A program made the translations under genes and the position numbers. From Acidobacteriota bacterium (GTDB taxonomy: Bacteria; Acidobacteriota; UBA890; WLXD01), in NCBI GenBank assembly GCA_965248695.1, contig CBDFKD010000002.1:5216001-5280000 (forward strand): a DNA stretch of 64,000 nucleotides. Direction: 5' to 3'. The notes below the pieces were generated by a model. It had not been told where the DNA came from. It worked only from the letters and a program-made list of their open reading frames with translations, and searched no databases. Of the stretch, positions 6,500-10,755 are shown in pieces. Each line of letters starts with the position of its first letter. Position 1 is the first letter of the stretch.

Positions 6500-7114
6500 C
6501 TACCCTGGCAGGCGGCCGGGGCTGGCGCGAACGCCGAGCACGGTGTTGGTTTCCGGGTCGATGTCGCATTGGTAGGTGTGGTTCTGCCAAGCACCGAGGC
6601 CATTTTGGAACTGGATCTTGTCGCCGATCAGGGTGAGGGTTCCGGCAGACTGATCCTTCCAGCGGAAGCGGCTGAACTTTGGCTCAAGGAAGCCGTCTGT
6701 CCACTGGTGGCTGTATTGCGCTAGCCGCTCGATGCGGTCTTCGCAGTACACACCTGTAGAGATGTGCCTGTTGCCCCAGCAGTTGAGGTCTTGCCGACAG
6801 GCCGTGTCGCTGACCGAAGGTGCGGAAGACGAGCCTGACCCTGGGTCATCCGTGCTGAGGACGTAGACGCAAAAAGCCAGTCCTAGCAGAAGCATCACCA
6901 CACATCCCATGGCGGTCTTGCTGGCCTGCTTTTTCTCTGCAGCCGCCGTCTCGGCGGTGAGGCTGGGTGCCGAGTCCTCGGGCTCGGGGGCTGCAGTGGC
7001 TGGGGGCGCGGCCGCGGCCGGATCCTCCGTTCCAACCGGGCAACCGCACTGCGGACAGGCTGCCGCCTGGTCGGAAATCTGAGCCTTGCATTCAGGGCAT
7101 TCGATCAGAGCCAA
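6500..7114 (-). CDS. Zinc-ribbon, single-TM membrane protein (immunity-region cargo)
   Basis: N-terminal CPEC...CPQC, Ala/Pro linker, TM 'CVVMLLLGLAFCVYVL' and a Cys-containing extracytoplasmic domain; downstream of repressor 1. Confidence 0.8.
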   Translation of the reverse strand: MALIECPECKAQISDQAAACPQCGCPVGTEDPAAAAPPATAAPEPEDSAPSLTAETAAAEKKQASKTAMGCVVMLLLGLAFCVYVLSTDDPGSGSSSAPSVSDTACRQDLNCWGNRHISTGVYCEDRIERLAQYSHQWTDGFLEPKFSRFRWKDQSAGTLTLIGDKIQFQNGLGAWQNHTYQCDIDPETNTVLGVRASPGRLPG

Positions 7115-7404
7115 CGTCGGTTTCCCCGTTCAGCGTTCACCGACCCTCGGGTGAGGTCGGCCTGTAGCGTGTAGAGCCTGCCGTAGCAGGCGCTCTCGGT
7201 CCTCCAGCGCGCTCCCCACGCGGCCTTCTCATCTTCTCCTTGTGTTAACAGACATTTGTCTAGTATGGTCTGCCACTTTGGATTAGAGCACACACGTACG
7301 GATACCGCTACCGGAAGCAGCCCCCTCGCCTCCCGGTTCGGAATGCTGGGAGGCATAAAGCATGGAGTGGATTGCGGCCAGTTTCGGATTTCTAGTCGGG
7401 GTCA

Positions 7405-7809
7405 TCATCGGTGTTCGATGGGGCGTAGCTTCGGTGCTGCGCGTGGCTCGGGATCGTCGCCGTATTCGGCTCCGAGTTCCCTAACAATCTTTTCAAGCTC
7501 GTCTACGTCCGCTTCGTATTCTTCTTTGATCTGGAAAAGCAAATCCATCAGGCGGAGGGTTCGTATGCGCGAGCGCGTGAGCCCCGGCAGATGAACCGCC
7601 AAGGCATCAATGAGCCCCTGGCCGCTCGGGTGCGACTTGCCCGTGATCCAGTTACTCAGCGTCGGTTGTGGGACACCTATTAGGCGGGCAGTAGCGCTCT
7701 TGTTCATGCCGCTTTCCTCGATCGAAGCCTCGATCGCCGAGCCCAGGTACCGCCTGAGGTAGATGTGTCCGTGTTTCTTGCGGGGTCGCACGCGATCAAT
7801 ACTTAGCAC
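7405..7809 (-). CDS. XRE HTH repressor 1 (cI-like, no peptidase domain)
   Basis: 'GMNKSATARLIGVPQPTLSNWITGKSHP' HTH; divergent from the Cro-like gene. Confidence 0.8.
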   Translation of the reverse strand: MLSIDRVRPRKKHGHIYLRRYLGSAIEASIEESGMNKSATARLIGVPQPTLSNWITGKSHPSGQGLIDALAVHLPGLTRSRIRTLRLMDLLFQIKEEYEADVDELEKIVRELGAEYGDDPEPRAAPKLRPIEHR

Positions 7810-7836
7810 TTCCTGCCGACGGGTGCCGGAAAGCTA

Positions 7837-7865
7837 TTGCGCTATCCAGTGAAACAGGTTATCTT
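7837..7865 (+). promoter_or_regulatory. Promoter for cro-1, probably leaderless
   Basis: TTGCGC-17 nt-TATCTT; the ATG follows 6 nt after the -10 box and there is no SD. Confidence 0.55.
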
Positions 7866-7871
7866 TCTTCT

Positions 7872-8105
7872 ATGAGATTCAGCAGAGAAACACTCCGATC
7901 TGCACGGGAAGAGGCGGGAATGTCCCGCGAGGACGCTGCCTTCTTCTTGCGGCAGTCTGGAAACGGTGTGTCGGTACGCACACTGCTTAATTGGGAGAGC
8001 GGTCGGTCGGAACCGCCGGCAGGCCAACTCGTGAATTTGGCGAATTTGTACGGCGTGAACCCAGTTGCATTTTTTTCACCAGATTCAACCAGTAACGCAG
8101 CCTAA
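7872..8105 (+). CDS. Cro-like HTH protein 1
   Basis: 'LRSAREEAGMSREDAA...VSVRTLLNWESGRSEP...LANLYGV'. Confidence 0.85.
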   Translation: MRFSRETLRSAREEAGMSREDAAFFLRQSGNGVSVRTLLNWESGRSEPPAGQLVNLANLYGVNPVAFFSPDSTSNAA

Positions 8106-8118
8106 GACGAATACTCAT

Positions 8119-8205
8119 ACTCGACGAGGTCGCATAGAAACCCCATGACGCTACCGAACGCAGACACCCACACGCCACTGCGGAATCAGGCGGGTAGCGC
8201 AGTGG
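8119..8205 (+). repeat. Post-cro junction repeat R1
   Basis: ACTCGACGAGG..TAG..CCCCATGACGCTACC..CGCCACTGCG-loop-CGCAGTGG; homologous to 9605-9686 and 10667-10755. Confidence 0.85.
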
Positions 8206-8255
8206 GCGAGGCCATCGTCACGCTTCTCATGGAGCTTCGCCGGAGAGCCGATGAG

Positions 8256-9017
8256 CTAGAAGAACTTCTCATCGAAAGCGTCGATGACCCATCCGACCTC
8301 GACCACGAGCGCGTCAAGGCTCTCGAATACAGCCAAGCCGGTATCAGGCCCCATACCTTCGCCGAAGACTACGCGCGCGACCACAAGCGTATCCATTTGC
8401 ACTTTTGGGGGTGCAGAGAAGACGAGGGTCGCGATTTTTGCGTTGTGTACCAGGCGGGGCTTGGTGACGGCGATGAACGTTTTGGGCTGGCCAGCGGATT
8501 CGTCATCGACGAGAGCGTTCAAACGGAAGCGCTCGGGCATCGCGGCGACGACCGAGAGCAATTTGTGCTTGTTCCGGTTGTCCAGTCTTCTCAGAAGGGA
8601 GAGGGGCGCCATCACGGGATCGTCACCTTGGTACGGCTGAACTCGCTCGATCAAGGATCTGGCCTCAGCGGGAAGGCTGGCAATGCGCCGAGCCCCGCGC
8701 GATTCGTATGCCCGTTCGGAGTCGAAGATCGGAAACAGGGTCAGTGTGTCATCAAGATCCGCCCCAGAAAGCTCCCAGGCGATGTAGTCGAGCGAGCACC
8801 GCAGGTTGTGGATGCAATCGCCGATGGTCAGCGCCCACTCACTACTGGGCAAAGCAGGAGGATCTTTGACGCGAGCGACGTAGCGGACTTCGTCGATCTC
8901 AGCCTCAACGACGATTCGATAGAGGTTCGCTTCAAAGAAGGAGTCAGTTTCTCTTTTAAGCGCTTCGAGGTGCTGTCTCGCCCGACGAAGTTTGGCGCGA
9001 CTTCCATCAAGCCCCAA
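8256..9017 (-). CDS. Putative HEPN-superfamily protein (possible Abi/defence RNase)
   Basis: SD GAGGAG with a TTG start; helical protein with 'GDCIHNLRCSLDY' and 'LLRRLDNRNKHKLL' (HEPN-like N-x-x-K-H) motifs; immediately downstream of repressor 2. Confidence 0.7.
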   Translation of the reverse strand: MGLDGSRAKLRRARQHLEALKRETDSFFEANLYRIVVEAEIDEVRYVARVKDPPALPSSEWALTIGDCIHNLRCSLDYIAWELSGADLDDTLTLFPIFDSERAYESRGARRIASLPAEARSLIERVQPYQGDDPVMAPLSLLRRLDNRNKHKLLSVVAAMPERFRLNALVDDESAGQPKTFIAVTKPRLVHNAKIATLVFSAPPKVQMDTLVVARVVFGEGMGPDTGLAVFESLDALVVEVGWVIDAFDEKFF

Positions 9018-9631: not shown

Positions 9632-9686
9632 CGCTACCGAGCCCCACCACCCCCACGCCACTGCGGAGTGAGGCGAACGGCGCAGT
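9605..9686 (+). repeat. Post-cro junction repeat R2
   Basis: CGACGAAGCTGCCTAGGAGCCCCATGACGCTACC..CACGCCACTGCGGA..CGCAGT. Confidence 0.85.
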
Positions 9687-9778
9687 CAACCTCGACATCG
9701 TCAAGGTTTCGCGTGCAGCGCTGTTACGCGTTGGCGTGTACGTGACGCCGAGCTTTGATGACACGTGGTGCCCCCACC

Positions 9779-10105
9779 TCATTCCGATGGGGCTTGTCGG
9801 AGCGCGGGCGGATAGCCCCCTTTGCTCTCCATCTGGTCTTGTTGATTGTCCAGAAACAACTGAACTCGAAGCAGGGCCTGACGAAGAAGCCAAGGAATCG
9901 ACTCGGACTGGAAGCTCCCCGCACAAGGAATGCGCACTGTCAACAGAAGTTCTTCGTCGTCATCTTCAACGCCTTTGCCGGGAGATACCGGGCCTTCTGG
10001 AGGAGCTTCGCTTCCTGTCGGAAACGCTAGCCGCATGCGGATCTGAACCGTGCCCCCTTCGAGAGGAAAAATCGTGAAGCCGGGTCGATCTGGGTATTGG
10101 TACAC
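9779..10105 (-). CDS. Hypothetical cargo protein downstream of repressor 3
   Basis: SD GGAGG 5 nt before GTG; 108 aa; same position as the HEPN-like gene in the neighbouring cassette. Confidence 0.6.
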   Translation of the reverse strand: MYQYPDRPGFTIFPLEGGTVQIRMRLAFPTGSEAPPEGPVSPGKGVEDDDEELLLTVRIPCAGSFQSESIPWLLRQALLRVQLFLDNQQDQMESKGGYPPALRQAPSE

Positions 10106-10136
10106 GGATTCCTCCGAGTCGTTGGCGAGCGGAGAG

Positions 10137-10366
10137 CTAGTCGAACTCGACGCCTTCAAGAAGCTCGCCGGGATGAACGCCGAGGGTGCGAGCAATCTTC
10201 AGCAGGGTCGACGCTCGCGGATCTATCTGACGCCCCTTTGTGCTGACGACACGCCAGAAGGTTCGGCGGTCGTTAGCGGTGGGCATCGCCTCTGCCACAC
10301 CTGCGTCAGGGTCATCCCGCAGTCATCCACCAGCGCTCTGAGGCGATCTCGAAGCTCCATCGGCAT
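10137..10366 (-). pseudogene. XRE HTH repressor 3, frameshifted near 10295-10300
   Basis: MPMELRDRLRALVDDCGMTLTQV/AEAMPTANDRRTFWRVV...PRASTLLKIARTLGVHPGELLEGVEFD; the C-terminus (ELLEGVEFD) is identical to repressor 2. Not in the ORF track. Confidence 0.8.
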
Positions 10367-10421
10367 CAAAGCCTAGGCACCAGTGTGCGATACGTCAACG
10401 GCAGAAAAAGCACTGACGCTC

Positions 10422-10450
10422 TTGACGGTATTTGGGACACGGACTAATAT
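10422..10450 (+). promoter_or_regulatory. Promoter for cro-3 and the early operon
   Basis: TTGACG-17 nt-TAATAT; GGACAC is repeated nearby. Confidence 0.6.
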
Positions 10451-10484
10451 GACAGTGATGATTAAAACAAGGACACATAAGGTC

Positions 10485-10685
10485 ATGCGATACACGATCC
10501 AGGACGTACTCGACCGGCACGGTGTTAGCCAGCGTGAAATGGCTCGGCGCACCGGGCTCGACTATTCCTACGTGAACCGGCTCGTCAACGGCCGGTTTGT
10601 GCCCCGGGTCGATAAAGCGTTGCGCCTCGCTGCTGCCTTGGAAGTGCAGGTCGAGGATCTGTTCGCACTCGACGAGGCCGCTTAG
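10485..10685 (+). CDS. Cro-like HTH protein 3
   Basis: 'IQDVLDRHGVSQREMARRTGLDYSYVNRLVNGRFVPRVDKALRLAAALEVQVEDLF'. Confidence 0.88.
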   Translation: MRYTIQDVLDRHGVSQREMARRTGLDYSYVNRLVNGRFVPRVDKALRLAAALEVQVEDLFALDEAA

Positions 10686-10755
10686 GAGGCCCGATGACGC
10701 TACCTGCCGCCGAACCGTGCTCGCCACTGCGCAGTTACCCAGCTGGCGCAGTGGC
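10667..10755 (+). repeat. Post-cro junction repeat R3
   Basis: ACTCGACGAGGCCGCTTAGGAGGCCCGATGACGCTACC..GCCACTGCGC-loop-GCGCAGTGGC. Confidence 0.85.

Follow-up and report, generated by a model that had tools for sequence, protein, structure and literature searches.

A tandem array of divergent repressor/cro modules in the immunity region of an acidobacterial prophage, apparently re-sorted by recombination at two short joints

In the textbook view a temperate phage has a single lysis/lysogeny switch, and its immunity specificity changes when that module is swapped. In the lambdoid CI/Cro immunity regions (lambda, 434 and P22 immC) accessory genes lie behind the repressor, as in cI-rexA-rexB, and P22 carries separate immC and immI immunity regions. 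Modular theory (Botstein) and the later lambdoid comparisons hold that phage genes are exchanged at short conserved "linker" boundaries. Integron arrays consist of variable-number tandem units, each of which ends in a conserved repeat. The present work describes, in a 64,000-nt stretch of an Acidobacteriota genome (the window; contig CBDFKD010000002.1, positions 5,216,001 to 5,280,000), three divergent pairs of XRE-type repressor and cro-type genes that occupy positions 7405-10755 in tandem, as judged from the list of open reading frames (ORFs) and their Pfam matches. The array falls within the immunity region of a prophage of ~52 kb that is complete and siphovirus-like. It is a real and recurrent feature, distinct from known immunity regions by its tandem accumulation and its dedicated joints, and a full-text search of the literature found no description of tandem repressor/cro stacks.

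The array resembles the lambdoid regions in several features. Each module comprises a divergent helix-turn-helix (HTH) repressor and a cro gene around an AT-rich control region (GC content of 0.50, 0.41 and 0.47 in regions 1, 2 and 3, against 0.64 for the window), and in this temperate phage the array has the late genes on one side and the early replication/recombination operon on the other. The repressors are backed by unrelated genes, and heteroimmune variants are swapped as modules. A preliminary description, made from the letters of the DNA, had proposed the three divergent pairs, and all of them were borne out (Table 1): HTH_3-type Pfam domains (HTH_3/HTH_26/HTH_31) occur in all three, with E values of 4.5e-7 to 9.1e-14 for five of the genes, and for Rep3 the HTH score (~1e-3) comes from the C-terminal piece alone. 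No two of the HTH proteins in the window cluster together at a threshold of at least 50% identity over at least 60% of the length. The differences from the lambdoid regions are that one to five tandem modules are present instead of one, joints flank every module, and the add-on repressors are bare HTH proteins of 67-93 aa. The C-terminal oligomerisation/S24 domain of a CI-type repressor is missing from Rep2 (86 aa) and Rep3 (76 aa); the absence of an S24 autocleavage domain, also part of the preliminary description, holds for the three pairs of the window, none of whose HTH proteins matches Peptidase_S24 (Pfam, E<=0.01). Only leftmost repressors (123-157 aa) are extended at the C-terminus, and this extension resembles no known family.

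Two short sequences recur at the borders of the modules. Every cro gene is followed by a homologous repeat, R, with a 65-nt core at 8141-8205, 9624-9688 and 10690-10754 (pairwise identity 71-78%) and 26 further conserved nt upstream, into the cro end. The near-identical 3' DNA of repressors 2 and 3 is likewise present, at 9079-9113 and 10136-10170 (35 nt at 94% identity), so that both of these earlier observations hold. The right joint consists of the last cro codons plus a 58-nt R core, and the left joint of the final 35-76 nt of the short repressor genes. The cro proteins mostly terminate in ...(D/T)EAA, followed by R, and the add-on repressors all end in ...ELLEGVEFD or ...CPKCGHELD, with the plus-strand DNA motif CTAGTCGA(A/G)CTCG. 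At three junctions in genome G000 the stop codon of the next repressor stands exactly 14 nt past R; the remaining gaps between R and the next repressor hold 316-919 nt of "cargo". As with modular linkers, unrelated modules share short border sequences, and blocks of identity start and stop there. The linkers of the modular theory differ in two respects, since here the modules accumulate in tandem, and the joints are coding ends (the repressor C-terminus, the cro C-terminus and the start of a 20-codon ORF).

The recurrence of R was surveyed in 41 related genomes with the pattern ATGACGNTACC-N15-25-CGCCACTGCG-N10-18-GCGCAG, its reversal serving as a control. The exact pattern was found in two of the 41, with 11 copies in this genome and nine in G007, which belongs to a different genus of the family; the reversed pattern gave no match in the 41 genomes, which argues that the recurrence is not due to chance. 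A profile built from the three repeats of the window also found 11 copies in this genome, and a sequence model from 20 R copies, applied to 26 genomes of the order, found 11 here, 10 in G007 and one marginal match in G003. Public genome contigs yielded two matches, one in a Lysobacterales and one in an Alistipes metagenome-assembled genome (MAG), both probably due to chance. Neither the public viral contigs nor the metagenome contigs contained the R pattern, and the repressor-end pattern was equally without matches in these two sets. The array DNA matched none of 50,697 phage records.

The search for the repeat in other prophages, together with a count of their cassettes, confirmed that variable-number homologues exist: seven arrays in two genomes hold one to five cassettes. 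Oriented with the cro genes on the plus strand, the window array holds three pairs, and the C1 array reads RepA|CroA, RepB|CroB, RepC|69-aa non-HTH ORF and Rep3|Cro3. The E2 array (C2 at 2.785-2.788 Mb) opens with a leading R beside an insertion sequence (IS), followed by three pairs that end in Rep3'|Cro3. In G007, the G7a array has five pairs with Rep3|Cro3 in third place, and the G7b array has three HTH pairs and a fourth, diverged R behind an unusual left pair; the G7c and E3 arrays have one pair each. In three prophages of this genome the Rep3|Cro3 module comes last, and in G007 it is the third of five. Outside the window, 32 of the 34 array ORFs belong to an HTH family (Pfam E<=0.001), the misses being CroA of C1 and the 69-aa ORF (L001:11446-11655), and the 39 array proteins fall into 18 groups when clustered at 50% identity or more. 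The single-cassette relatives carry only the long type of repressor (123-157 aa). The arrays of G007 lie on an independently assembled 4.36-Mb contig. In one of them the leftmost "repressor" slot (L029:16692-17669, plus strand) is taken by a 325-aa protein, in which an HTH-like N-terminus is joined to a Sak4-like P-loop annealing body (phrog_124, E 7e-25).

The presence of more than one repressor system per temperate phage is shared with P22 and with N15 and PY54, which are reported to carry immA, immB and immC immunity regions (PMC4488713). The regions of those phages are functionally different, scattered and fixed in number, whereas the modules described here are like-for-like, adjacent and variable in number. 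Another likeness is to the TF-smORF modules, in which, as far as passages of PMC10432266 describe them, a small XRE factor and a divergent small gene act in a module-specific manner in co-resident prophages. In that source each phage has a single module, and the partner, a small protein without an HTH, inactivates cI; here the partners are HTH proteins bar one, and the modules are stacked. Since all three partners in the window are HTH proteins, the array was not assigned to the TF-smORF modules. The term "immunity cassettes" has also been used, in passages of PMC9934374, for toxin-immunity pairs, which are unrelated.

The alignments between arrays point to the joints as sites of exchange. Four high-identity blocks were found, at 8145-9143 (window against E2 and G7a, 91%), 9608-10200 (against C1, 98.5%), 10125-10704 (against C1, 98.1%) and 10136-10754 (against G7a, 95.7%), and all four start and stop inside the R/cro-end or the repressor-end joint, which indicates that modules were gained, lost and re-sorted by recombination there. 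The two C1 blocks overlap by 76 nt within the repressor end, and C1 holds ~1 kb more between them; the two arrays therefore differ by one recombination across the repressor-end joint, and the window, compared with C1, is exactly the form minus one cassette. The exchange at the named repeats that the preliminary description had envisaged is upheld by these blocks and by the overlap. The loose ends of public contigs at 9059, 9608 and 10704 coincide with joints, and the letters beyond them match the R/cro variants of other copies. As read from the DNA, the array is shown to have been built and re-sorted by recombination in two joints, and R appears as the conserved junction where the exchanges happen.

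The exchanges reach below the level of the module. Cargo 2 lies behind Rep2 in the window, Rep3 in G7a and Rep3' in E2, and cargo 3 lies behind Rep3 in the window and RepC in C1, contrary to the notion that each cargo gene travels with its own repressor. The cro3 ORF is near-identical in five copies (window 10485-10704 and the paralogues L001, L002, L028 and L029), a similarity that starts at the ATG and takes in the first 11 nt of R, and the synonymous divergence (dS) is 0.02-0.09; the adjoining repressor and control region exist in two versions whose synonymous sites are saturated, and the break falls at the cro3 start codon. The recombination genes of the prophages comprise a RecE-like gene and phrog_3657 in the window and an exonuclease with a Sak4-like protein in C1, and they are partly present in G7a. 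The RecE-type gene, named earlier as a possible agent of exchange, was found with this query only in the window's prophage among the 41 genomes, and C1 carries the exonuclease and the Sak4-like annealing protein; RecE was accordingly dismissed as a shared recombinase.

The nature of R itself was approached both as RNA and as coding sequence. The 20 copies align without gaps, and their invariant parts are ATGACG-TACC, CGCCACTGCG and GCGCAG. The only invariant pairing among them is a 5-bp stem (CTGCG/CGCAG), no covarying pairs were found in the 20 copies, and the fold-energy z-scores of eight copies (-2.09 to +0.45) are not unusual. A comparison of 6300-13200 with Rfam returned nothing at E<=1, and two tRNAs were all that reached the gathering score across the window. 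When R was considered as an element of the nutR/tR1 or put type after cro, the result was again no covarying pair and no plus-strand terminator-like site, the invariant stem being uninformative. Read in the frame of the ATG, the few variable sites of the conserved blocks give synonymous or conservative changes (CTA/TTA/ATA, CCG/CCT, ACG/TCG, CGG/CGA/CGC), which hints that R may be the translated beginning, 20 codons long, of an ORF (MTLP-x5-(T/S)PLR-x5-A); AGGAG often stands shortly before it. The sequence 3' of R differs between copies: C1 has a 138-aa zinc-finger-like ORF there, E3 has a gene that starts at an ATG of its own, and junctions free of cargo have the opposite strand of the next repressor gene. 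The R-initiated ORFs either have homologues in G000 and G007 alone or have none. Like integron arrays, these stacks are made of variable-number tandem units with a terminal repeat, and the same units occur in different orders across hosts. Unlike integrons, they have no integron integrase beside them (a phage integrase is 12 kb away), R has an invariant inverted repeat of only 5 bp, the cassettes carry putative promoters of their own, and a second, unrelated joint is also used. With a 5-bp stem without covariation in 20 copies and no adjacent integrase, the locus was not classed as an integron cassette array.

The state of the genes suggests that the modules are maintained. The repressor genes of the arrays are open in 19 of 20 cases, the exception being the terminal Rep3 of the window, and the cro-type genes in 19 of 19. 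The ratio of non-synonymous to synonymous divergence (dN/dS) ranges from 0.12 to 0.47 for pairs with a dS of at least 0.3: it is 0.18-0.29 for RepB (dS about 1), 0.27-0.47 for CroB, 0.13-0.16 for Rep3 against Rep3' and 0.12 for RepC. All four copies of RepB|CroB occupy interior positions. In their control regions TGTTGAC is invariant, a -10-like hexamer stands 17-18 nt beyond it, and each variant has its own palindrome in the promoter spacer, e.g. TTGAATTGGATTCAA in G7a. These control regions look as those of working repressor/operator pairs would, and function in the interior of the array is a prediction. The preliminary description of repressor 3 as a gene stands for the four other copies, in which it is intact (a single ORF of 76 aa in C1 and G007, and of 73 aa in the E2 and G7b variants); in the window, and there alone among the five aligned cassette copies, its reading frame is split by two extra nt at ~10296.

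The reading preferred here, to which a probability of about 0.5 is given, is that of a recombination-built stack of hetero-specific switch modules, most likely widening superinfection immunity. Each module would consist of a small XRE-type repressor read leftward and a Cro-type HTH protein read rightward, flanking an AT-rich control region. Homologous recombination at the joints would add and remove modules, probably aided by the exonuclease/annealing-protein modules of the phages, and the joints are of about the length that exonuclease/annealing systems need. The leftmost pair, with its long repressor, is taken as the ancestral switch because the single-pair relatives have the long type only, and the add-on pairs with short repressors would be kept working. 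The rightward promoter of the last pair would drive the early operon, and the other repressors, made in the lysogen, would silence incoming or co-resident relatives headed by the same module, thereby conferring multi-specific superinfection immunity. In the window, the broken terminal Rep3 would need to be supplied in trans by the intact, near-identical copy in C1, whose control region is 98% identical. The structural and evolutionary half of this reading, taken alone, is highly probable. A bolder extension of it is speculative and rather doubtful, namely that the stack is an expandable, protein-based "immunity memory", in which phages capture the switch modules of competitors through the two 60-100-nt joints and annealing recombinases. 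Each capture before a phage's own early operon may then add heritable immunity to one more phage type, the captured promoter may join a convergent-transcription relay that co-induces the prophage when the competitor's repressor fails, and R, as a 20-codon ORF start at every junction, may be a dedicated capture site.

Several observations weigh against widened immunity as the function of the stack. The preliminary description had given every pair its own sigma70-like rightward promoter; a consensus scan of 6300-13200 found three sigma70-like sites, compared with 1.1 +/- 1.0 in shuffled sequence, and they are the rightward site of cassette 3 (10422-10450), a leftward site in cassette 2 (9405-9376) and one within cro3, so that the scan backs a rightward promoter in only one of the three cassettes. 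Palindromes occur in the promoter spacers of related modules, whereas the repeat search of the window's three control regions gave no clear operator repeats, and our own scan gave weak inverted repeats in region 1 only. Beyond the HTH itself, the add-on repressors show no evident domain for oligomerisation or sensing. Repressor and cro do not invariably travel together, given the near-identical cro3 beside two diverged repressor/operator versions, and the partner of RepC varies between the non-HTH 69-aa ORF in C1 and CroI in G007. The sole broken array gene is the window's terminal repressor. Three prophages of one genome share the terminal Cro3, which argues that stacking is not needed for coexistence. 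The closest RepB pair has a dN/dS of about 1, from 13 changes only, and the low ratios of the other pairs may reflect a past life as terminal modules. Relics exist outside the arrays, as shown by a 5-nt deletion in E5 and an orphan repressor end in G7b, and the recombination genes are not the same between the prophages. At the level of the reads, the junctions of cargo 2 with Rep2 (9033-9081) and of cargo 3 with the Rep3 body are bridged by none of the listed short-read contigs. The 2-nt insertion appears in no public contig; those over 10296 carry five C1-type differences, and they therefore derive from a C1-type copy and do not settle the frameshift of the window.

The stack could instead be recombination debris, that is, a set of near-neutral products of unequal crossing-over, with one working switch per phage and the others decaying. 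The host offers at least five related prophage copies as partners, relics and one frameshift exist, the mosaicism is as fine as the single cro3 ORF, the lineage is narrow (two genomes in all collections searched), and the dN/dS of the closest RepB pair is about 1. Decay is harder to reconcile with 38 open genes among the 39 HTH genes of the arrays, with dN/dS of 0.12-0.47 at dS of 0.4-1.5, with the conserved -35 element and variant-specific palindromes of interior control regions, and with the position of the sole array frameshift, which lies in a terminal and not an interior module; debris is an unlikely account. A serial gate or relay has also been considered, whereby the firing of an upstream promoter disturbs the next repressor and the signal passes down the stack as a multi-input cascade, or the early genes fire only once all repressors have been lifted. 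Such an arrangement would suit the identical orientation of cro in all seven arrays, toward the early genes, the convergence of adjacent modules with junction gaps of just 14 nt in some cases, and the lack of plus-strand terminator-like sites in 6300-13200, where all four sites found are on the minus strand and R is not a convincing terminator hairpin. Architecture is its sole basis, however, the terminator scan covers one terminator type only, and the occurrence of the same module as terminal in one phage and interior in another is left unexplained, all of which makes the relay quite unlikely.

Two further alternatives concern the role of the add-on pairs and the integrity of the assembly. 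The pairs may have no part in immunity and serve as local regulators of cargo, or as extra induction inputs like the TF-smORF modules, for which passages of PMC10432266 describe SOS-independent induction in polylysogens by an XRE factor and a divergent small ORF. This host is a polylysogen too, RepC of C1 faces the non-HTH 69-aa ORF, and several short repressors are backed by different cargo genes; yet 19 of the 20 rightward partners are cro-type (18 with Pfam HTH matches, CroA of C1 having none), several modules with 14-nt junctions are free of cargo, the cargo re-assorts independently of the repressor, and none of it matches a PADLOC defence family, so that a role outside immunity is improbable. 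An assembly chimera, in which cassettes of different prophages or strains were misjoined at the repeated joints, would account for contigs that break at the joints, which are exact repeats exceeding the assembler word length; the public runs that hold the stretch look mixed, with several related phage variants, and read depth is ~3-13 over the window-specific pieces, compared with 9-22 over the C1-type piece. It is nevertheless highly improbable, since stacks of up to five pairs lie on the independent 4.36-Mb contig and in two more places in this genome, and since zero-mismatch short-read contigs covering 7312-8226, 9081-9655 and 9638-10161 bridge cro1 to R1, Rep2 through cro2 to R2, and R2 through cargo 3 to the repressor end.

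The switch module, usually single, here accumulates in tandem, with up to five per phage and with natural "before and after" recombinants in one cell. Should the interior modules function, a single prophage could provide immunity to several relatives, and competition between co-resident prophages would gain a simple genetic basis. The parts themselves (repressors of 67-93 aa, control regions of 60-115 bp and palindrome variants) are a possible source of orthogonal switches. Even with inert interior modules, the locus documents the making of phage mosaicism with unusual clarity.

Each repressor had been described as followed on its strand by a different cargo gene, encoding a zinc-ribbon membrane protein, a HEPN-like protein and a 108-aa protein. 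The zinc-ribbon protein (phrog_13160) and the reality of cargo 2 as a gene stand, but 290 nt separate the zinc-ribbon gene from Rep1, and the gene has a repeated leader of its own. At the same place C1 and E3 have variants of 254 and 315 aa, and copies of the leader repeat occur in related prophage regions; the C1 copies at ~5.6, 6.3 and 8.9 kb lie just upstream of a predicted gene. Cargo 2 is read as a real gene on the minus strand, since it has eight homologues and shows more synonymous change there (16 synonymous and 28 non-synonymous changes) than does the antisense ORF (8 and 36). Its AlphaFold2 model (mean predicted local distance difference score, pLDDT, of 83.6) is a helical bundle with beta insertions. 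HEPN membership was judged by a four-helix bundle with an Rx4-6H motif; the top VIA-align matches include the HEPN chains 5yep_B (Z 8.3, root-mean-square deviation 4.2, 123 aligned residues) and 7ae2_A (Z 7.7), values below a Z of ~13 being common for helical bundles. The invariant residues are N71, R73, K150 and H151, and an arginine stands seven residues before K-H in seven of nine sequences. Foldseek against the PDB returned nothing at E<=0.001 for cargo 2, Pfam gave no match and the ESM Atlas only unnamed clusters. In cargo 3, both overlapping ORFs survive an in-frame 84-nt deletion in G007, and the few substitutions do not discriminate between the strands; no homologues of the ORF of either strand were found, and the ESM Atlas gave no usable match. 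Among 20 proteins compared with the PADLOC defence families, cargo included, none matched at E<=0.01, and NCBIfam returned nothing for the cargo genes.

The surroundings of the array are those of a prophage. Upstream of the window lie genes for methyltransferases, large terminase, portal, head-morphogenesis protein, scaffold, major capsid, adaptor, major tail and tape-measure proteins. These late genes are followed by three tRNA genes, an IS1-like element, the array, the early operon, and the excisionase-like protein and tyrosine integrase. The tRNA genes are probably phage-borne, as they sit between the tail genes and the array. A search for an attachment site gave no repeat of at least 13 nt, the tRNA-Ser end included, shared by the tRNA region and the DNA on the far side of the integrase.

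Table 1. Positions of the array, its cargo and the neighbouring prophage genes in the window.
Feature	Position	Strand	Description and evidence
tRNA-Arg-CCT	1564-1635		
tRNA-Ala-TGC	2723-2809		
tRNA-Ser-GGA	4443-4518		
Zinc-ribbon protein	6500-7114	-	204 aa, one hydrophobic stretch; Pfam Zn_ribbon_3 E 2.8e-4, below the curated cutoff; phrog_13160 E 3.2e-17
Leader-like repeat	7117-7204	-	~85 nt, upstream of the zinc-ribbon gene; 9 genome copies, 84-100% identity; no Rfam match at E<=1
Rep1	7405-7809	-	candidate XRE-type repressor of 134 aa, a long form that lacks the shared 3' joint; Pfam HTH_3 E 4.5e-7; singleton in clustering
Cro1	7872-8105	+	77-aa HTH protein; Pfam HTH_3 E 1e-9
Joint R1	8119-8205	+	final cro1 codons and R core; ATG at 8145
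Cargo 2	8256-9017	-	253 aa, ORF open to 9122; 8 homologues of 250-320 aa, 30-92% identity
Rep2	9080-9340	-	86 aa; final ~64 nt (9080-9143) are the shared repressor-end joint (...ELLEGVEFD); Pfam HTH_3 E 4.5e-10
Cro2	9422-9631	+	69 aa; Pfam HTH_3 E 9.1e-14
Joint R2	9602-9688	+	ATG at 9628
Cargo 3 segment	9689-10136		overlapping ORFs at 9628-10077 (+, from the R2 ATG) and 9779-10105/10195 (-); 100% identical to the C1 segment
Rep3	10137-10369	-	two ORF pieces, the frame being broken by 2 additional nt near 10296; shared joint at the 3' end (10137-10200)
Intergenic region 3	10370-10484		rightward promoter-like site at 10422-10450 (TTGACG-17-TAATAT)
Cro3	10485-10685	+	66 aa, first gene of the early operon; Pfam HTH_3 E 4.6e-11; 94-100% aa identity in five copies
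Joint R3	10667-10754	+	ATG at 10694
Early operon	10984-21106	+	two pentapeptide-repeat proteins, DnaN, RecE-like exonuclease VIII, PD-(D/E)XK nuclease, resolvase-like protein, DUF1376 primosomal protein, DnaC-like loader (Pfam, PHROG)
Excisionase-like HTH_17 protein and tyrosine integrase	22406-23831	+	prophage right end

Some minor features of the flanking DNA may be added. A stretch of 162 nt at 3416-3577 is 100% identical to the 3' end of cargo 2 (8236-8397) and adjoins an IS1 transposase fragment, which suggests an IS-linked rearrangement on the left side of the region. Positions 3-2092 of C1, the 127-kb second contig, are an inverted copy of 4401-6489 of the window (the IS1 element and a 153-aa ORF) at 99.95% identity, so that the break of contig C1 may lie within a repeat. 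On the other side of the array, the pentapeptide-repeat genes at 10984-11628 and 12444-13046 are the first sizeable genes of the early operon and are carried by related prophages too; a third repeat-rich stretch lies near the DnaC-like gene, with antisense similarity at 21188-22507. A second repeat, at 10756-10843 and 12099-12183 (54 nt at 100% identity), has three copies in the genome, two here and one in E2. On the plus strand it presents a hairpin, then AGGAGG and then a start codon (GTG at 10833; the proteins begin with MHSN), and on the minus strand it reads as an intrinsic terminator with a 13-bp stem, and it has no Rfam match. In three of four runs, 10866 and 12182 are joined in public contigs, which omit the 1315 nt between the copies of this second repeat, and the resulting arrangement is that of the E2 prophage.

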